The notes beneath the pieces were generated by a model, which worked only from the letters and a program-made list of their open reading frames with translations, was not told where the DNA came from and ran no database searches. A DNA stretch of 64,000 nt from a virus, in IMG/VR virus record IMGVR_UViG_3300035698_025300; one strand, given 5' to 3'. The position numbers and the translations under genes were made by a program. This document shows, piece after piece, positions 10,303-45,752 of this stretch. Every line of letters starts with the position of its first letter. Position 1 is the stretch's first letter.

Positions 10303-10354
10303 TCATGTGTTATTATATGATTGCTTTCTGAACTATGCAATCATTTTTAAAAAA

Positions 10355-13579: not shown

Positions 13580-13865
13580 AAAAATCTCCTCGTTCTGTAT
13601 TCGTATAATATAAAGTTATGCAGATTCACCTGCAAGACAGTCGTTTTTATTCAGCTATTGAGACCTTCTTTTTGTAGAGCCTTAAGAGCAAATTGGTATG
13701 CGGTATCTACCGCTCAGCCTTTTTGGAATAAAAGTCTTTGAGCATCTTTGGGGATTGATTCTCCACTTGTTGTGAATATAGCGAAAATACCAAAATCGTT
13801 CTCAGCAACATCGTAAATGTTATTTTCTTTACTCATTTTTTGCTCCTTATTGATATTTTTATCAA

Positions 13866-14256: not shown

Positions 14257-14643
14257 TCAATTCTCATCCTTAGCCCCCTCTGGGAATATGTAGTCCATAG
14301 CCACTTTTTCTATGTCTTCTCCATTTCCTATTAAAGTATAATAAATTTCACCATTCTCGTCAAAAGTAGAAGAAATAAGATTATTTTTTTCCATTTCTCT
14401 TAATGCATATCCCATTAGGCGCATTTCTAGTTCTTCTGCCATATCTTCTTCTGTAGCTTCGTGATTTCCGTTATTCCAAAAATATACTAAAATTGAATTT
14501 CCAAAATCAACTACACAATCAGTATATGTTTTAAGGTCTTTAAAATCTTCTTTTTTGATTTCATATTCATAAATTGCTTTTAAGCATTCTTCGTATCTTT
14601 TCAGTGATATCTCTTCGTATGGACATTTTTCAACATTACTCAT
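14257..14643 (-). CDS. hypothetical protein
   Basis: 128-aa ORF, RBS, promoter TTGCAG-17-TATAAT upstream. Confidence 0.7.
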   Translation of the reverse strand: MSNVEKCPYEEISLKRYEECLKAIYEYEIKKEDFKDLKTYTDCVVDFGNSILVYFWNNGNHEATEEDMAEELEMRLMGYALREMEKNNLISSTFDENGEIYYTLIGNGEDIEKVAMDYIFPEGAKDEN

Positions 14644-14722
14644 TTATCAACTCCTATTATGAAAGTGTATTACATTATATAGCGAACATGTAAAAACTGC
14701 AATAATAGGACATACTTTATTA

Positions 14723-14794
14723 AGCCGGCTGCGGGAATCGAACCCGCTTATCTGGCTTACAAGACCAGCACATTACCATTTATGCTTAACCGGC
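14723..14794 (-). tRNA. tRNA-Thr(TGT)
   Basis: Loop CTTGTAA. Confidence 0.92.
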
Positions 14795-15327: not shown

Positions 15328-15384
15328 AAAACCTATATTTAATTTTCAATACATTTTTATAAATTTCTATCAAATTTATGCATT

Positions 15385-15419
15385 AAAAAAGCCTACCGAA
15401 CTCATTTGTGCGGTAGGCT
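15385..15419 (-). terminator. attenuator terminator 1
   Basis: AGCCTACCG...CGGTAGGCT followed by a T-run; homologous to the 20487-20521 hairpin. Confidence 0.85.
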
Positions 15420-15458
15420 CATAAAAAATAACGTAAAGCTCTAACGCACTTCCTCCGC

Positions 15459-16833
15459 CAAGCACACTTCGATGGGGCACCCGTAGACGAGAAAGAGGCA
15501 GTGCTTCCATATCGGGGATTTGAGAAATACCAGTACATAGCCTACAAGTTCGGGCGCATTGCCAGAAAGCTGAACTACGTCAACAAATAGGCGCTATGGC
15601 ATTCCGAACAGACCAGGCCTGCTTTGGTCTTTGGTCTTCGGCTTCTGTCCAGCATTCCCGCAATGGTCGATGTCGGCAGGATCGTAGTTTGTCCAAAGGA
15701 CCTCGGTACGCTTGCCTTTCGTGGCGTGGTTGGTGCGTTCAGCGCTCCGAGTCCTATACCACTGGCATTCGGGATACAACTCTTCCATCAGGTCGCAATC
15801 GTAGTTGGAGATGGCAACGTGACCCACCACTGTATTCAGGACTGCTGCAAGCGCCCGGTGTTCGTCATCTGTCATTTCGAAGCCATAGGCCTTCGTGTCG
15901 CCTCGGGTTGCGTGGATATATGGAGGATCACAGTAGAAAAGGGTATCGGGCGAATCATATAGGAGGATAACGTCAATGGCTGGACGGTTCTCTATCTGAA
16001 CACGAATCAAGCGTTCCGCGATCGCAGGCAGTTGGTCAACTCCTCCGAGCCAACGGCTGATTACACCACTCATGCCGCGGCGACTAGTGTTCTTGCAGTT
16101 CGCCCACCTGCCTATCGTGGCTGTCTGTGCCAGGCCTGTTCGGACTTGGCGAGCGCGAATATAGAAGCGCCTGGCTCGTTCCAGAGGAGGTACATCCGGG
16201 TCCAAGACACATGCACTGCCAAATTCCTCTCTCGAAAAGGGCGTGAGAGCGATGGCCTCGATTAGCTTGTCCTTCTCATCTCTGAGTACGCGGAAGAAAT
16301 TGCAGACTTCACCGTCCAAGTCGTTGTATGTTTCGATGCTGGCGGGAGGCCGATTCAGAAGTACGGCGGCCGACCCGGAGAACGGCTCGCAATAGTGATG
16401 GCATGGCGGCAGCAATGGAAGAAGCCAGTCTAAGTGGCTAAACTTCCCCCCATACCAGCCGAATGGGATCAGCTTCCGGCGTCCGAGCCGCTGTACGGGC
16501 GGGGCCAGCTTTCGTCCGTTCTTCTTTCTTTTCATTCCGTCCATGTGCAATTCCAAAAGGCAGTAAGTGATTTTCTAACTGTGCGTTACCGCCATTCCTA
16601 GGTGGTTAGGAAGTCGGTCCAGCAGTATTGATCAACTGTAACCCGTGCCAGCGGAAATTGCGAGGCTTTTCGTTACAGGCCCTACCAGATCGGACATCGG
16701 ACGAGCCCATTCCGCCGGGCGTCACGAGGCCTTGGAAGGCGTCTCCACTGGAGCCGCCGAGGCAACTCGGGATCGAAGGCCTTGGACCACTTCGCGCCAA
16801 CGCCTCTGGAGTTCCGTTTCGATGGAGCTCCGC
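15459..16833. mobile_element. 1375-bp GC-rich captured bacterial DNA segment flanked by a 6-bp direct repeat
   Basis: CTCCGC at 15453-15458 and 16828-16833; abrupt GC shift; truncated gene 3' ends at both sides. Confidence 0.8.
15594..16556 (-). CDS. DNA adenine methyltransferase (Dam/D12-class N6)
   Basis: FGWYGGK, YCEPFSGSAAV, YNDLD, FYCDPPY. Confidence 0.92.
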   Translation of the reverse strand: MELHMDGMKRKKNGRKLAPPVQRLGRRKLIPFGWYGGKFSHLDWLLPLLPPCHHYCEPFSGSAAVLLNRPPASIETYNDLDGEVCNFFRVLRDEKDKLIEAIALTPFSREEFGSACVLDPDVPPLERARRFYIRARQVRTGLAQTATIGRWANCKNTSRRGMSGVISRWLGGVDQLPAIAERLIRVQIENRPAIDVILLYDSPDTLFYCDPPYIHATRGDTKAYGFEMTDDEHRALAAVLNTVVGHVAISNYDCDLMEELYPECQWYRTRSAERTNHATKGKRTEVLWTNYDPADIDHCGNAGQKPKTKDQSRPGLFGMP

Positions 16834-16898
16834 TGTAAAGGCTTTAACCGCCCAAATAGTTTTAAAGAACATGTTGTTACGTGCGTTTTCCATGCTTC

Positions 16899-16927
16899 AT
16901 TATATGATACTCAAAACAGCAGTGCAA
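16899..16927 (-). promoter_or_regulatory. sigma70 promoter of leader 1
   Basis: TTGCAC-17-TATAAT with AT-rich upstream element. Confidence 0.8.
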
Positions 16928-20266: not shown

Positions 20267-20345
20267 ATATGTAATATTTACTTGTCATTATTTCGCACTG
20301 ATGTTTCTTTTAAACATCTTTCCAGTTTATATCCATCAAAAAAAG

Positions 20346-20418: not shown

Positions 20419-20440
20419 GTATCAATATTTAATTTTCAAA

Positions 20441-20477
20441 ACAACGCGGCGCCTTAACCAATTGGGCCACGCTCACC
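20441..20477 (-). pseudogene. 5' half of a tRNA (His-like), truncated at the anticodon loop
   Basis: GGTGAGCGTGGCCCAATTGGTTAAGGCGCCGCGTTG with no 3' half. Confidence 0.6.
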
Positions 20478-20486
20478 ATGTATATT

Positions 20487-20521
20487 AAAAAAGCCTACCG
20501 AACGTTTCTGCTCGGTAGGCT
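20487..20521 (-). terminator. attenuator terminator 2
   Basis: AGCCTACCGA...TCGGTAGGCT followed by a T-run. Confidence 0.88.
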
Positions 20522-20543
20522 CATAAAAATCTATGCTTATGAC

Positions 20544-20621
20544 TTAACGCACGAATACCTCTTCAGCGGTTTCTTCCGCTTCGTTATGATTAAATTCATT
20601 ATGGTTTCGTGCAAAAGTCAT
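20544..20621 (-). CDS. leader peptide 2, MTFARNHNEFNHNEAEETAEEVFVR
   Basis: RBS AAGGA; 25 codons between promoter and terminator. Confidence 0.8.
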   Translation of the reverse strand: MTFARNHNEFNHNEAEETAEEVFVR

Positions 20622-20641
20622 AGTAATTTTCCTTATGTCTT

Positions 20642-20670
20642 ATTATATGATACTGAACATCAGCAAGCAA
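20642..20670 (-). promoter_or_regulatory. sigma70 promoter of leader 2
   Basis: TTGCTT-17-TATAAT. Confidence 0.8.
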
Positions 20671-29962: not shown

Positions 29963-30006
29963 TTTTTGTAATATATTATACAATACATTTTATCATAAAG
30001 CAATCA

Positions 30007-34383: not shown

Positions 34384-34449
34384 TTATTGCTGATCGGGGT
34401 CTGGTTGTGTATCTTGATCGACGGTCTGATTGTAGTTAATCTTTGTCAT
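34384..34449 (-). CDS. leader peptide 4, MTKINYNQTVDQDTQPDPDQQ
   Basis: 21 codons immediately after a consensus promoter and before the Pro/Gln tRNAs. Confidence 0.75.
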   Translation of the reverse strand: MTKINYNQTVDQDTQPDPDQQ

Positions 34450-34468
34450 AATACTCAACCTTTAATTA

Positions 34469-34497
34469 ATTATAGGATACTTAAAGATCCTTGTCAA
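34469..34497 (-). promoter_or_regulatory. consensus sigma70 promoter of leader 4
   Basis: TTGACA-17-TATAAT. Confidence 0.9.
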
Positions 34498-40931: not shown

Positions 40932-41026
40932 TGTTTTTCCTAATTTATTTACTGATTATAAAATCGGCATAATCCGGGTATTTCTTGCTGTGTGGCTGTT
41001 TGTAGTCTATAATAAAATATATTCCA

Positions 41027-41426: not shown

Positions 41427-42455
41427 ATGCGAAAAGTATTTTTATCTTTGGTTGTTTTATTTATGGTCGTGTTGTCAGGATGCTCGTCAAGTTATGTGCT
41501 TCGAGATGAAAGTGGGAAAATTATCGGAGCGGCAGAGCCTATCACGAAAAAGGCCGCTGATAATTATCGAAAGGCTAGGAACCAGTCTGATAGTCGTAAA
41601 CCGGCACCAAAAACAGCTATTGCCGAGAAGGGGATAAGTTCTCACGTATCGGTTGTAACCAGTGCCGGTCAGGGGTCTGGAATTGTTATAAAAAGAAATA
41701 ATATCACCTATGTTTTGACGACAGCACACGGTTTAATGCGTGCGTCAGAAAAATTTACGCCAAAAAAAGTGGACCATCCAGCTAAGCCGATAAACCCCTT
41801 ACCAACAAAAACTTTAGGACCAGATAATATTGGAGCAGAAGGGTGGGCTAAGAATTCCTTGTCTTTGGACAATTTATATTCTCGCCTTAAGAGCACAGGA
41901 ATAGTTGAAACCGAAGATTTAGATCTCGATCTCGATACAATAGGCTTAGACGTCAGCGCTGGTTACAAGAAGGTTTGCGGAATGTGGTTTCAAACAAATA
42001 ATATTAATGTTGTGAAATATGAATTTCGTCAATCAGGTAAATCTGTTAAATACAGCAAGGCTGTAGCAATAAATATAGATCCATTATATGACATAGCTAT
42101 TTTGAGAATTGAAAACGGACACAAGCTTGCGGTTAAAGGTGCTGATTTTTATGACGGCGTAGATAGAATTGCCATTGGGTCAGATGTTTTCCATTGTGGT
42201 AATATGTTGGGCTTGTTGCCAGAAACACTCACTAAAGGGATCGTTTCTCATAATAACAGAGGAGCCGGTCAGTACCTACAACTTGATTGCTACGCGATTT
42301 ATGGATCATCTGGTGGTGGAGTGTATGAGGCATCTAGCGGCAAGTGCGTTGGAATGGTGAGGAGCATATATTCACCAAATATGACGATGGCCATTTCCAT
42401 TGAGTTCATAAGACTGTGGGCTCATACTCGAAATTTGGATAACCTTTTTGAGTAA
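41427..42455 (+). CDS. trypsin-like serine protease with lipoprotein signal
   Basis: LSGC lipobox; GSG, LTTAH, DIAIL, GSSGGG. Confidence 0.85.
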   Translation: MRKVFLSLVVLFMVVLSGCSSSYVLRDESGKIIGAAEPITKKAADNYRKARNQSDSRKPAPKTAIAEKGISSHVSVVTSAGQGSGIVIKRNNITYVLTTAHGLMRASEKFTPKKVDHPAKPINPLPTKTLGPDNIGAEGWAKNSLSLDNLYSRLKSTGIVETEDLDLDLDTIGLDVSAGYKKVCGMWFQTNNINVVKYEFRQSGKSVKYSKAVAINIDPLYDIAILRIENGHKLAVKGADFYDGVDRIAIGSDVFHCGNMLGLLPETLTKGIVSHNNRGAGQYLQLDCYAIYGSSGGGVYEASSGKCVGMVRSIYSPNMTMAISIEFIRLWAHTRNLDNLFE

Positions 42456-42503
42456 CCCCTGAAACATTGATTAATTTTGTGTAAAAGAAAAAGTATTTTC
42501 TTG

Positions 42504-42532
42504 TTGCTCCCGCGAGCGATAGATTGTATAAT
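42504..42532 (+). promoter_or_regulatory. sigma70 promoter of leader 3
   Basis: TTGCTC-17-TATAAT. Confidence 0.8.
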
Positions 42533-42574
42533 GATATAGTAAGAGATAAATTCTTGCATATAGGATAAATTCAG

Positions 42575-42694
42575 ATGAATACTGCAACACAACAATTTGA
42601 AGGCGTAGCTATAGTCAATAAGACTGTCTCGCAATCTTTGTATTCATCGTTATCCTATCTCTCTAGTAGTTTATCTAGTTATTGTTTGCTGTAA
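42575..42694 (+). CDS. leader peptide 3, MNTATQQFEGVAIVNKTVSQSLYSSLSYLSSSLSSYCLL
   Basis: RBS AGGA; 39 codons before the Leu/Tyr/Cys/Ser tRNA array. Confidence 0.8.
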   Translation: MNTATQQFEGVAIVNKTVSQSLYSSLSYLSSSLSSYCLL

Positions 42695-42701
42695 TCACGC
42701 A

Positions 42702-42751
42702 AACTCGGACGGCTAGAAAACGAATTCTCTGTATTCCCCGTTTGGGTTCTT
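42702..42751 (+). terminator. attenuator hairpin 3
   Basis: AACTCGGACGG/CCGTTTGGGTT with a short U-tract. Confidence 0.6.
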
Positions 42752-42775
42752 GACAAGTAAATAGTGTAAATATGC

Positions 42776-42852
42776 GCCCACGTAGGCAAATTGGTAAAGT
42801 CTGTTGGTTCAAAACCAGCGTAATTTTGGAGGTTCGATTCCTCTCGTGGGTA
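42776..42852 (+). tRNA. tRNA-Leu(CAA), short variable arm
   Basis: Loop TTCAAAA. Confidence 0.85.
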
Positions 42853-42857
42853 GTATC

Positions 42858-42930
42858 GCCTCGGTAGGCCAAAGGCAGAGTCAGCGGATTTAAAATCCGT
42901 ACAGTGTGGGTTCGAATCCCACCCGAGGCA
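42858..42930 (+). tRNA. tRNA-Leu(TAA), 5-nt variable loop
   Basis: Loop TTTAAAA. Confidence 0.85.
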
Positions 42931-42943
42931 TTGTAAAATAGAT

Positions 42944-43019
42944 GCCGCGTAGGCAAATTGGTAAAGTCTGTTGGTTCAAAACCAGCGTAATTTTGGAGGT
43001 TCGATTCCTCTCGCCGGTA
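42944..43019 (+). tRNA. tRNA-Leu(CAA) duplicate with altered acceptor stem
   Basis: Body identical to 42776-42852. Confidence 0.75.
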
Positions 43020-43028
43020 GTTAGATTA

Positions 43029-43117
43029 GGGTTCTGTTCCATACGGCGGTCTGTAAAACCGTTGCCTGAAAAATATGTATGGCGGTCGGGCGAGTGGTTC
43101 AACTCCTCCAGAACTCA
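43029..43117 (+). tRNA. D-armless tRNA-Tyr(GTA)-like RNA
   Basis: 8-bp acceptor, loop CTGTAAA, no D-arm, long variable arm. Confidence 0.65.
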
Positions 43118-43191
43118 TGATTCTATGAAGAGATAAATCGGCCCAGCGAAAGCGATTGTAGGTTCGATTCCTATCTTGCTCAGTAATTTTT

Positions 43192-43276
43192 GGAAGTGTG
43201 ACCGAGTGGATAATTGTAGCAGACTGCAAATCTGCCGAGCGTATGCCCTTCGTAAGTTCGAATCTTACCGCTTCCG
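43192..43276 (+). tRNA. tRNA with GCA (Cys) anticodon, long variable arm and G73
   Basis: Loop CTGCAAA. Confidence 0.8.
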
Positions 43277-43284
43277 TTTCTATT

Positions 43285-43367
43285 GGAAGGTAATGCAGCA
43301 TTGGTAGCTGTGCTGGTCTGCTAAGCCAAGTGTATGAAAATATCAGGTTCGATTCCTGTGCCTTCCG
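43285..43367 (+). tRNA. 8/4 tRNA-Ser(GCT)
   Basis: GGAAGGTA/TGCCTTCC, T-stem CAGG/CCTG, extended D-stem, G73. Confidence 0.85.
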
Positions 43368-43377
43368 TTGATTACCT

Positions 43378-43471
43378 GGAGCGCGTGACAGCTATTGGCA
43401 GGGCTGTGCTGGTTCTGAAAACCAGTTGGCGTCTTGATGGCGTCATGCAGGTTCGATTCCTGTCCGCTCCG
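43378..43471 (+). tRNA. tRNA-Ser(TGA), 8/4-like
   Basis: Loop TCTGAAA, T-stem CAGG/CCTG, G73, one acceptor mismatch. Confidence 0.8.
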
Positions 43472-43493
43472 TTGCTCTTAGAAGTGTGAAGTT

Positions 43494-43577
43494 GGCACGG
43501 TGGCTGAGTGGTTAAAGCGGCGGTCTGCAAAATCGTTACGCCCGCAAGGGGCGTGGGTTCGAATCCCACCCGTGCCT
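43494..43577 (+). tRNA. tRNA-Cys(GCA) with long variable arm, U73
   Basis: Loop CTGCAAA. Confidence 0.85.
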
Positions 43578-43582
43578 TTATT

Positions 43583-43672
43583 GGAAGGTAGCCGGATATT
43601 GGCTAGTCGGGGCTGGCCGGAAACCAGTTGGGCGCGTCTCGCGTCCTGAGAGTTCGATTCTCTTGCCTTCCG
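43583..43672 (+). tRNA. 8/4 tRNA-Ser(GGA)
   Basis: GGAAGGTA/TGCCTTCC, T-stem AGAG/CTCT, loop CCGGAAA. Confidence 0.85.
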
Positions 43673-43677
43673 CTTAT

Positions 43678-43759
43678 GGAGCATAGGTAGAAAGGTTCTT
43701 AACGGGTTTCGAAAGCCCGCCCAGCCTTTGGGCTGAAGGTTCGATTCCTTTATGCTCCG
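43678..43759 (+). tRNA. 8/4 tRNA-Ser(CGA)
   Basis: GGAGCATA/TATGCTCC, T-stem AAGG/CCTT, loop TTCGAAA. Confidence 0.82.
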
Positions 43760-43895
43760 TCTTAATCATCAGACATTGTATTTATTATGCAATTTATATT
43801 CTGCGGTAAAATAGTTTATGTTGCCGAATAAGTAAAAGGAATTTGCCGTTATTGTTACAAATAAAAGATACTTATTAGTTTAACGGGAACATAAT

Positions 43896-45752
43896 ATGGA
43901 TAAATTATCTCAGTCTTCTGTAACATTGGAAAATGCAGTTAAAAGCGATACAGGTCAGCCAATCGTTACCATAAAAGGGAACACTTACCCCATTAGAAAA
44001 GAGCTAGGTCGTAGCGGGTTGGGATTTACTTGGTATCGTGGAGGCAATTTCTGGTGGATGTTTAAAAGTCGGTTCGATGCCAAGAAAGATTTTATACTAC
44101 CTAAAATACAATCTCTTGGTATTGATATTTCTAATTTTAAAGATGTAGACGCTTCTTCAGCAGCATCTGCAACCGACAATAGCAATCAGTCCGCATCTTC
44201 CGAGACAGCTAAAGAGTCCGATTTGACAGACAAGACAACTGTTACTGACAATTATTCGTATACTAATTTTCCCGTTAATGACAATATTTACACAACAACT
44301 ATACCGGCTTTACATCAGGGAAAAAACATTGAGTTGAAGGTTCAGTTCGGTCGTAATAGGGATGAAAAGTATAGAAAAACTATTCCTAGATATATTATAC
44401 AGATTTTTTATAAAGATATTTTGGTACGAAAGAAAGAAGGGGCTCCACCGAAAGGATCTAAGTGGACTAAGGCCGGTCCTAATTATAACGAAGATGATAT
44501 AGTTAGAAGAGTTTTAGAGGCTATCCCGTCTTGGGCAGACAATCCTAAGTCTGCTTTATATGAGCATATAGAGTACGAAGACGTAGCCGAGAATCGTGGA
44601 GCAGATTTACAGGGAGTTTTTGATACTTTATCTGAATCATTTGGAGCAGATGTTTCTGATAAATTTCCTGATAGAAGTATACGCCTAGATGTTCCTCCGT
44701 ATGAGGGGGTGGTCCCTATCAAGCTAGATCCTCAGTACTATAAGACTTTGAGGGGGCTTACTGTAAATCTGTTGACTAATGTGGATCATAGATTGGCTCC
44801 AAGGCCAGGAAAACTCGCTAGAATAGACATACCAGTTACTGAGGGGACTATTTCAGATGTTCTTAGGTATGTAGACGATTATATTTTACAGAACCAGCAG
44901 AAAATAAAAGAATCATATTTAGAATATTTAAAGTCTTTCGCTTATACAAAAGAGCAGGAAGAGCAATTTTCTTCAGAGTTTGGGGAAGTTTTAGACAGAA
45001 TTGTAAATAATAACGTTGATGTATCTTTCTTTAAGAGGCAATTACTTGAGCTTGGTTTTATTCGGCCAAGCAAACGGCAGAAGGCCACTGGTCCAGGCGT
45101 GGCTCCACAGGGAGCTTTTAAACTTATTATAGATGATAAAGCTATCCGTGATGCTTCTTTGAGGTGGAAGAGCGCTGATTTAAACGATCCAAAGTATATA
45201 TATGCTGCTATAGCTTACAATTTGATGCGTATTAAGCATAGGAATATTGGCTACATGCCTATTCTTTTGGACGATGCATACCGCGCTGTGGCTTCTTTGC
45301 TTAAGAGATTTTTTGATGCAAATATAACTAACCAGCAGGTTGCGTCTTTTGTTGATTCGGTTGCTAGGGGCATATTTAAAGATTTAACCGGCAGGAGTTA
45401 TCGCAGTTTTGACGAGGTATACTCTGATTTTTATTCTGGCAATTGGAACTCGGATCAACAATCTACAGAAACTGGGCAGTTTGTGGCAAATGTTAATAAC
45501 GCAGCTTTGACGGCTTTTGCAGATTTTATGACCTCCAATATGAATATAACCATAGAACAGGTGGTCACAAACCCAAAATCGGCTTATCGTAGATTCGCTT
45601 TACAACATCATCCGGACAGGGTTCCAAATGAACAGAAAGCAGAGGCCGAGAGGATCATGGCTGAAGCAAACGCTTTGTATGAGAATCTTCCAAGAGAAGT
45701 ATTTAGCTCGTCTAACTGGTATATAAAATCGAAGAGGTCTAAAAATGGCTAA
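43896..45752 (+). CDS. large protein with a C-terminal J-domain-like HPD motif
   Basis: SAYRRFALQHHPDR...AE..M...N..Y. Confidence 0.7.
   Translation: MDKLSQSSVTLENAVKSDTGQPIVTIKGNTYPIRKELGRSGLGFTWYRGGNFWWMFKSRFDAKKDFILPKIQSLGIDISNFKDVDASSAASATDNSNQSASSETAKESDLTDKTTVTDNYSYTNFPVNDNIYTTTIPALHQGKNIELKVQFGRNRDEKYRKTIPRYIIQIFYKDILVRKKEGAPPKGSKWTKAGPNYNEDDIVRRVLEAIPSWADNPKSALYEHIEYEDVAENRGADLQGVFDTLSESFGADVSDKFPDRSIRLDVPPYEGVVPIKLDPQYYKTLRGLTVNLLTNVDHRLAPRPGKLARIDIPVTEGTISDVLRYVDDYILQNQQKIKESYLEYLKSFAYTKEQEEQFSSEFGEVLDRIVNNNVDVSFFKRQLLELGFIRPSKRQKATGPGVAPQGAFKLIIDDKAIRDASLRWKSADLNDPKYIYAAIAYNLMRIKHRNIGYMPILLDDAYRAVASLLKRFFDANITNQQVASFVDSVARGIFKDLTGRSYRSFDEVYSDFYSGNWNSDQQSTETGQFVANVNNAALTAFADFMTSNMNITIEQVVTNPKSAYRRFALQHHPDRVPNEQKAEAERIMAEANALYENLPREVFSSSNWYIKSKRSKNG

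Follow-up and report, generated by a model that had tools for sequence, protein, structure and literature searches.

We propose that positions 42504-42775 of the DNA analysed here form the regulatory leader of a phage operon for Leu, Tyr, Cys and Ser tRNAs; terminator/antiterminator attenuation, as modelled from RNA folding, would be the best single explanation for this region, and our confidence in it is slightly better than even. The short open reading frame that it contains, referred to here as leader 3, has a codon content that matches the tRNA genes behind it beyond reasonable chance. Leader 3 is a real and very probably functional codon-matched leader, the translation of which we infer, and its role is most likely that of a ribosome-read sensor that tunes tRNA production to decoding demand.

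The tRNA array and its phage

The window, i.e., the whole 64-kb stretch that was analysed, carries 36 tRNA genes recognized by ARAGORN, a tmRNA gene and four additional Rfam tRNA matches. Its protein products include an intein-containing ribonucleotide reductase, an NAPRTase, an AAA ATPase and a protein kinase, and the GC content of the window lies between 33 and 47%. Near-identical DNA is present in several salt-lake metagenomes, where the phage reaches a depth of 2-3x and leader 3 is identical in the respective DNA runs. On the basis of this low-depth, near-identical salt-lake DNA and the gene content of the window, its source is therefore an uncultured large (giant) phage. No RNA runs holding the phage are listed. 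A diverged Cys-Ser array was detected in runs X3 and X4; compared with the array of the window it is short of about 328 nt and 182 nt, and the part upstream of it could not be aligned to leader 3 at 80% identity.

All tRNA genes on the + strand of the window reside in one single array (42776-43761), which follows directly after leader 3 and comprises exclusively Leu, Tyr-like, Cys and Ser tRNAs. The order of the anticodons is CAA, UAA, CAA (defective), GUA (candidate), GCA, GCU, UGA, GCA, GGA and CGA:

42776-42852, + strand: tRNA with anticodon CAA (reads UUG), 77 nt, short variable arm (ARAGORN; Rfam, 47.4 bits)
42858-42930, + strand: tRNA with anticodon UAA (reads UUA/UUG), 73 nt (ARAGORN, Rfam)
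42944-43019, + strand: second copy of the CAA tRNA, likely a pseudogene (Rfam, 33.1 bits, and fold; no ARAGORN call)
43029-43117, + strand: candidate tRNA-Tyr (GUA), atypical, without D-arm (fold; no ARAGORN or Rfam call)
43191-43277, + strand: tRNA with anticodon GCA, long variable arm (ARAGORN, Rfam, alignment)
43285-43367, + strand: tRNA-Ser (GCU), long variable arm (ARAGORN, Rfam, alignment)
43378-43471, + strand: tRNA-Ser (UGA), long variable arm (ARAGORN, Rfam, alignment)
43494-43577, + strand: tRNA-Cys (GCA), long variable arm (ARAGORN, Rfam, alignment)
43583-43673, + strand: tRNA-Ser (GGA), long variable arm (ARAGORN, Rfam, alignment)
43677-43761, + strand: tRNA-Ser (CGA), long variable arm (ARAGORN, Rfam, alignment)

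The second CAA copy is classified as a likely pseudogene because its acceptor stem fails to close. In the fold of the candidate tRNA-Tyr, the acceptor stem has 8 bp and the T stem 4 bp, the anticodon loop carries GUA, and the variable arm is long. Odd shapes are found several times in the array, namely Sec-like Ser tRNAs, Cys tRNAs with a long arm and the Tyr candidate without a D-arm. Protein-coding neighbours are a flanking gene for a DnaJ-like protein of 618 amino acids and a gene for a protein of 254 amino acids inside the array.

Relatives of the locus were sought in isolate phages, IMG/VR, JGI metagenomes and protein collections, and none with leader 3 turned up. A blastn search of the locus against isolate phages returned generic tRNA-Leu matches only, and tblastn with the flanking 618-aa protein gave no match. 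IMG/VR was scanned with protein patterns from both flanking proteins and with DNA patterns derived from the Ser tRNA and from the terminator of leaders 1 and 2, and nothing was retrieved in either case. The single scan of metagenomes (JGI) yielded only chance 20-mer matches without tRNAs. Homologs of the DnaJ-like protein exist at 28-44% identity, and on their contigs no tRNA array lies beside the gene. For the 254-aa protein one homolog was found on a contig of 1 kb. Four exact sequences were looked up in the protein collection, and none of the four was present.

Codon content of leader 3

The elements preceding the array that are relevant for the expression and the coding content of leader 3 are the following:

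42504-42532, + strand: promoter with -35 element TTGCTC (42504-09), 17-nt spacer and -10 element TATAAT (42527-32), from sequence and promoter class
42562-42565, + strand: Shine-Dalgarno-like AGGA, 9 nt before the ATG, read from the sequence
42575-42694, + strand: leader 3 ORF, 39 codons and a TAA stop, translation MNTATQQFEGVAIVNKTVSQSLYSSLSYLSSSLSSYCLL
42629-42691, + strand: sensing codons, a run of 21 of which 20 are Ser/Leu/Tyr/Cys, from codon counts and shuffles
42751-42763, + strand: conserved 13-mer TGACAAGTAAATA, 12 nt before the first tRNA and repeated in the window

Transcription probably starts near 42539. The pattern TTGC-N19-TATAAT is present in 11 copies in the window, compared with an expectation of 0.53, and none of 100 shuffles reached 11 copies. 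All 11 copies point in the local direction of transcription; among them are several tRNA promoters and those of the leaders designated 1 and 2. As for a promoter between leader 3 and the tRNAs, which the preliminary description had named as a potential bypass, a search revealed none of the sigma-70-like type between the leader 3 ORF and the array. The motif TTGACA at 42750 was considered as part of such a sigma-70 promoter and rejected, as no usable -10 element precedes the tRNA start. The pattern TGAMAAKTAAATA, which describes the 13-mer, occurs in four exact copies in the window, each located 6-12 nt upstream of the 5' end of a tRNA and on the strand of this tRNA. Its function may lie in RNA processing, in the binding of a protein or in starting transcription as a signal of a phage-specific kind. 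If the latter were the case, leader 3 would not be the sole route to the tRNAs.

The distance from the end of the leader 3 ORF to the first tRNA is 82 nt. The codons of the ORF are distributed very unevenly. While residues 1-18 do not include a single Ser, Leu, Tyr or Cys, residues 19-39 consist of ten Ser (TCT3, AGT3, TCG2, TCA1, TCC1), six Leu (TTG2, TTA2, CTC1, CTG1), three Tyr (TAT), one Cys (TGT) and one Gln. The count of 20 in the last 21 codons reported in the preliminary description is therefore exact. It had further been stated that these codons include ones read by every isoacceptor encoded downstream. When wobble rules are applied to the array anticodons CAA, UAA, GUA (candidate), GCA, GCU, UGA, GGA and CGA, a reader exists for 18 of the 20 Ser/Leu/Tyr/Cys codons, but not for CUC and CUG, for which no reading tRNA is encoded anywhere in the 64-kb window. 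The Cys codon matches the two long-arm GCA tRNAs of the array.

Several tests address the significance of this match. Among all open stretches of 21 codons in the six frames of the window, the tail of leader 3 has the highest Ser/Leu/Tyr/Cys count with 20, and the next independent stretch reaches 16. In a ranking of 1632 small ORFs, leader 3 takes the first place (19/19, binomial 2e-13), followed by a runner-up with 3.5e-8. T accounts for 49% of the tail, and chance was therefore assessed with shuffles that preserve dinucleotides. In 100,000 such shuffles of the 63-nt tail, a count of 20 was never reached (maximum 19, observed six times; mean 10.8, sd 2.0), ruling out composition bias as the source of the codon run. 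A chance ORF without function, the first alternative to be considered, is scarcely credible given these numbers, the position of leader 3 directly before the matching array and the occurrence of three further cases in the window.

It could also be argued that the region is an untranslated structured leader, e.g., a processing signal, and that the Ser/Leu/Tyr/Cys frame arises only incidentally, from the need of a strand rich in pyrimidines to pair with the purine-rich 5' UTR. The T content of the tail and the complementarity of codons 23-28 to the ribosome-binding site and start region fit this idea. However, the enrichment is specific for one frame, which has 20 Ser/Leu/Tyr/Cys codons as opposed to 9 and 5 for the remaining frames, none of the dinucleotide-keeping shuffles attains it, and there are no Phe codons at all despite the richness in T. 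Pairing accounts for no more than about 12 of the 21, and the codon rule also applies to leaders of different composition (N/H/E; Q/P/D). We consider an untranslated leader highly improbable.

The codon rule in other leaders of the window

A blind test was applied to the window, in which small ORFs whose end lies within 300 nt ahead of a same-strand tRNA were scored for enrichment in the amino acids of the tRNAs that follow. Three of the 86 small ORFs in the window scored at p<1e-4, and these were leaders 3, 2 and 4. Leader 3 reached 2.6e-10 even without counting Tyr, the tRNA for which was missed by ARAGORN. Leader 2 (MTFARNHNEFNHNEAEETAEEVFVR) offers N/H/E codons before His-Asn-Glu tRNAs (6.6e-8), and leader 4 (MTKINYNQTVDQDTQPDPDQQ) offers Q/P(/D) codons before Pro-Gln-Pro-Gln tRNAs (8.3e-6). 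Leader 1 is broken up by a GC-rich island and turns into a 25-codon paralog of leader 2 once this island is removed. Both share promoter, ends and terminator, and differ mainly in the central codons. The centre of leader 1 (FFKTIWAVKAFTA) is composed of F/K/T/I/W/A/V codons and that of leader 2 of N/H/E codons. As the tRNAs behind leader 1 are those for Phe, Ala, Phe, Thr, Lys, Lys, Lys, Thr, Trp, Ala, Ile and Val, the central codons of each paralog fit its own downstream tRNA set. The fact that the paralogs kept the frame and the flanks, while the centre was re-written to suit the respective cargo, provides the strongest argument that the codons are under selection. Leaders 1 and 2 are not homologs of leader 3.

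These comparisons bear on another alternative, according to which leader 3 is a stand-alone micro-gene that either yields a functional peptide or ties up tRNAs in the manner of the lambda bar minigenes, with the tRNA genes being expressed independently. Leader 3 has its own promoter and ribosome-binding site, and the conserved 13-mer between hairpin and tRNA could be a separate start signal, as this explanation would demand. On the other hand, no meaningful homolog of the leader 3 peptide was detected among 1.84 billion representatives, its tail is of low complexity, and the already mentioned search found no sigma-70-like promoter between the leader 3 ORF and the array. Furthermore, the four mini-ORFs of the window are unrelated in sequence and have in common only the rule that their codons correspond to the downstream tRNAs, which points to decoding rather than to a peptide product. 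A micro-gene of this kind thus appears improbable.

The blind test was also applied to the regions with tRNA genes in phage T5 and Streptomyces phage Comrade; no codon-matched leader was found there, and the best value was 1.5e-5. This match is an annotated Cys-rich zinc-ribbon-like protein. Phage Mx1 contains scattered single tRNAs only. Taken together, T5 and Comrade without codon-matched leaders and Mx1 with its single tRNAs indicate that the design is not universal among tRNA-carrying phages.

Predicted mutually exclusive RNA structures and the proposed attenuation model

The whole leader 3 region is structured (z -3.7). Four elements of the predicted fold can be distinguished:

42544-42582, + strand: segment 1, comprising 5' UTR, ribosome-binding site and start codon, pairs with segment 2
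42640-42689, + strand: segment 2, codons 23-39, pairing with segment 1 through its 5' part and providing the 5' arm of the predicted antiterminator with its 3' part, 42669-89 (folds)
42699-42720, + strand: segment 3, the 3' arm of the predicted antiterminator, overlapping the 5' arm of the hairpin (nascent-RNA fold)
42702-42748, + strand: hairpin 3:4, candidate terminator or pause signal, with an 11-bp stem AACUCGGACGG/CCGUUUGGGUU and a 25-nt loop (fold)

Segments 1 and 2 interact through 42544-54 with 42665-76 and through 42560-82 with 42640-58. The resulting domain I (fold of 42539-42680) has an energy of -34.4 kcal/mol (z -3.57), and none of 200 shuffles folds as well. It closes the ribosome-binding site and AUG (42544-82) against codons 23-34 (42640-76). 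In leaders 2 and 4, the start regions are likewise hidden by pairing. With the ribosome-binding site concealed in this way, translation would be limited to ribosome loading during transcription.

The arms of hairpin 3:4 (42702-12 and 42738-48) form a structure of -15.2 kcal/mol (z -2.04), which was not called by a terminator scan. Its tail reads CUUGAC, or UUCUUGAC (UUCUU) once two basal A-U pairs open, in agreement with the earlier remark that the U-tract is short. Two helices had been proposed to exclude this hairpin, GUUUGC (42684-89) with GCAAAC (42699-704) and UCUAGU with GCUAGA (42712-17). Both are present in the minimum-energy fold of 42660-42720, and they are indeed incompatible with the hairpin as the pairing overlaps its 5' arm. 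In its extended form, the antiterminator connects 42669-89 with 42699-720 (-13 to -15.4 kcal/mol).

The behaviour of this structure depends on how folding is modelled. In a nascent-RNA model, only the RNA 3' of the ribosome and up to just before the 3' arm of the hairpin was folded. Under this condition, the antiterminator is the minimum-energy fold when the A-site of the ribosome is placed on codons 19-28, with -13 to -15.4 kcal/mol. The energy then drops in magnitude: with the ribosome at codon 30 it is -10.7, at codon 33 it is -6.4, and from codon 36 to the stop it is -3.3 kcal/mol, and the antiterminator is gone with the ribosome anywhere from codon 33 to the stop. Such a dependence on ribosome position in the model fits the geometry expected for a trp-like attenuator. 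Equilibrium models in which the ribosome masks part of the RNA give a hairpin probability of 0.7-0.98 at most ribosome positions, without a clean switch. The antiterminator alone does not stand out from shuffled sequence (z -1.7, with an equally good fold in 14 of 200 shuffles), and its internal loop of 7 nt is a toehold for the 3' arm of the hairpin. The ratio of antiterminator to hairpin energy is comparable to that in the E. coli trp attenuator. An outer helix between 42680-90 and 42756-66 encloses the hairpin (-24.3 kcal/mol, z -2.6) and joins the last codons to the 13-mer.

Attenuation as proposed in the preliminary description is therefore upheld with regard to codon match, promoter class, ribosome-binding site and mutually exclusive helices, while the weak U tail, the low significance of the antiterminator and the preference for the hairpin at equilibrium speak against it. 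In a different mechanism, the ORF would be translated and decoding would be sensed, but the output would not be intrinsic termination. Ribosome position might then govern the access of Rho to the untranslated leader, cleavage by RNase or maturation of the first tRNA at its 5' end, or the stability of the precursor. Besides the weak U tail, the failure of the terminator scan to call the hairpin and the barely switching equilibrium fold, the outer helix that ties the last codons to the 13-mer before the tRNA argues in this direction. Leaders 1 and 2, in turn, bear canonical terminators, the strongest of the region, which argues that termination is the common output of the design, and we judge an output of another kind to be the less likely, though serious, rival. 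The antiterminators of leaders 1 and 2 are weak (about -7 kcal/mol). For leader 2, the terminator was part of the minimum-energy fold at every ribosome position tried, the sole alternative helix amounting to approximately -7 kcal/mol. Since the models thus do not switch the terminator, calling leader 2 a textbook case, as was done at first, is an overstatement.

For leader 3, attenuation would proceed as follows. The phage promoter would start an RNA whose first gene is the 39-codon ORF, a sample of the codons read by the tRNAs behind it. One pioneer ribosome would load while the RNA is being synthesized; later, codons 23-34 would pair with the ribosome-binding site and shut it. When decoding of Ser, Leu, Tyr or Cys codons is slow, because host tRNAs are scarce, uncharged or cleaved, the ribosome would stall on codons 19-28. 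This would leave 42669-89 free to pair with 42699-720 and block hairpin 42702-48, and RNA polymerase would read on into the tRNA genes. When decoding is fast, the ribosome would cover codons 33-39 and the stop, the hairpin would form, and transcription would stop or pause ahead of the tRNA genes. That the ORF is translated, that the hairpin terminates transcription and that the response runs in this direction is proposed here on the model of the trp and ilv attenuators.

Known attenuators and the supply of phage tRNAs

Multivalent attenuators operate in enterobacterial amino-acid operons, among them ilvGMEDA (Leu/Val/Ile codons), ilvBN and thr (Thr/Ile). Leader 3 resembles them in that a short 5' leader ORF, the translation of which is presumed in our case, presents a run of codons for several amino acids as the sensor. 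Further resemblances are the alternative 1:2, 2:3 and 3:4 helices tied to ribosome position, predicted for leader 3 by folding models, and the expected output, i.e., read-through into the genes downstream. There are also clear differences. The ilv and thr leaders precede genes for biosynthetic enzymes, whereas leader 3 precedes tRNA genes, such that the sensor would report on the very molecules under its control. In addition, leader 3 would sense four amino acids (20 of 21 codons), it is encoded by a phage, and its 3:4 hairpin is devoid of a proper U-tract.

Attenuators that respond to a single amino acid include trpL, hisL, leuL and pheL, and the pheM leader of pheST controls phenylalanyl-tRNA synthetase. 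Ribosome stalling on regulatory codons, as proposed for leader 3, is common to all of them, and pheM adjusts a component of the translation apparatus via the level of charged tRNA, as leader 3 would do. Unlike leader 3, they sense one amino acid and possess canonical terminators. To our knowledge, none of them controls tRNA genes. T-box riboswitches (RF00230) are similar to the proposed leader insofar as a cis-acting leader responds to tRNA status and, through antitermination, adapts the supply of the translation apparatus. They differ in that the RNA itself binds uncharged tRNA, by means of a specifier codon and the T-box sequence, and needs no ribosome. Neither the T-box nor any other Rfam family matches 42450-42775, and for 42450-43900 no non-tRNA family was obtained at E<=1 with a credible score. 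Full-text literature searches returned no description of leader-peptide control of tRNA genes, and in a key paper on phage tRNAs there is no mention of leaders or of attenuation.

The role of phage tRNA genes is debated; it has been proposed that they compensate for codon usage, replace host tRNAs that decay or allow the phage to escape defences that cleave tRNAs (PMC10264068, PMC11555353). A broader interpretation of the present findings is a supply of tRNAs driven by demand, in which every tRNA block would have a multivalent leader peptide as its gate, and this peptide would sample exactly the codons that the block decodes. We find it about evenly balanced whether this generalization holds. 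The leader codons of the individual blocks would then be S/L/Y/C, N/H/E, Q/P(/D) and F/K/T/I/W/A/V, one set per block, and a given tRNA set would be made only upon stalling, for instance when host tRNAs decay or are cleaved by anticodon nucleases. With only the sensing codons re-written between the paralogous leaders, the sensor would be an evolvable module.

If this explanation is true, leader 3 would also report whether the odd-shaped tRNAs of the array (Sec-like Ser, long-arm Cys and D-armless Tyr) decode, and from sequence alone, leaders of this type could serve to predict which codons non-standard tRNAs decode and how tRNA arrays are organized into operons. It would constitute the first feedback mechanism for tRNA genes, and leader-peptide attenuation, a matter of amino-acid metabolism, would then reach the decoding apparatus as well.

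Leaders of other tRNA sets

Leaders 1, 2 and 4 are codon-matched mini-ORFs located in front of tRNA sets other than the Leu-Tyr-Cys-Ser array:

20544-20670 and 20491-20522 (-): leader 2, before His-Asn-Glu tRNAs
20445-20480 (-): tRNA 5'-half-like fragment (acceptor strand and D-arm), between the leader 2 terminator and a 13-mer repeat
34384-34497 (-): leader 4, before Pro-Gln-Pro-Gln tRNAs
15335-15458 and 16828-16927 (-): leader 1, in two pieces split by an island at 15459-16827

The leader 2 ORF comprises 25 codons, with N/H/E in 12 of 16 codons, and is served by a TTGCTT-17-TATAAT promoter followed by AAGGA. Between the ORF and the His-Asn-Glu tRNAs lies the strongest canonical terminator in the region, a 13-bp stem with U6, and the unit as a whole has a folding z of -8.0. 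The minimum-energy fold retains this terminator with the ribosome at each position tried, and the alternative helix amounts to only about -7 kcal/mol. The tRNA-like fragment downstream of the terminator looks like a relic of insertion or duplication of a leader cassette.

Leader 4 is preceded by a perfect TTGACA-17-TATAAT promoter and encodes 21 codons, 11 of 14 being Q/P/D. No tRNA-Asp was found within the window. A TATAAT box (34320-34315) is present between leader 4 and the first tRNA.

Once its insert is removed, leader 1 proves to be a 25-codon paralog of leader 2, MENARNNMFFKTIWAVKAFTAEEVR, and its central codons fit the downstream Phe/Ala/Thr/Lys/Trp/Ile/Val tRNAs. The 1.37-kb island is GC-rich, carries GCGGAG repeats on its flanks and contains a 320-aa ORF, a Dam-like methyltransferase according to the preliminary description. 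As the ATG of leader 1 lies only 5 nt past the -10 box, its mRNA may be leaderless.

Shared promoter class and 13-mer

Promoters of the TTGC-N19-TATAAT class occur 11 times in the window (0.53 expected), every copy matches the local direction of transcription (11/11), and several reside directly 5' of single tRNAs. The 13-mer TGAMAAKTAAATA is present in four exact copies, in each case 6-12 nt 5' of a tRNA start; it might direct processing, serve as a binding site or act as a start signal of an unusual kind.

10312-10340, 29975-30003, 40985-41013: examples of TTGC-N19-TATAAT
15336-15348 (-), 20275-20287 (-), 20426-20438 (-), 42751-42763 (+): 13-mer copies

Unusual tRNAs of the array

42944-43019 (+): second CAA tRNA copy, near-identical to the first
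43191-43277 (+): GCA (Cys) tRNA, long variable arm
43494-43577 (+): second GCA tRNA, also with long variable arm
43285-43366, 43379-43469, 43587-43671, 43678-43758 (+): four Ser tRNAs

The first GCA tRNA has a Ser-type acceptor end (…CCGCUUCC-G), as in the four Ser tRNAs, and might be charged with serine. In the second, U follows the acceptor stem, as in Cys tRNAs. For all four Ser tRNAs, the Rfam tRNA-Sec model outscores the general tRNA model (24-39 bits, all below the tRNA-Sec threshold), in keeping with the non-standard stem geometry remarked upon in the preliminary description. The second CAA copy is probably a pseudogene, because its acceptor stem no longer pairs. In the variant array of metagenome runs X3 and X4, 42827-43154 is apparently missing entirely.

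Other phages

A blind control on phage T5 (L010), scoring small ORFs upstream of tRNAs for codons of those tRNAs, returned a single, weak match:

14628-14756 (-), L010: T5.070, annotated 42-aa protein, CxxC…CxxC, zinc-ribbon-like

T5.070 ends 6 nt upstream of tRNA-Cys and does not form a low-complexity run of the leader type. The JGI contig L001, a distant relative reached via the 618-aa DnaJ-like protein flanking the main leader locus, encodes a tRNA with anticodon CUA (13740-13814). The tRNA may be an amber suppressor and hints that TAG is recoded in the lineage of this contig.
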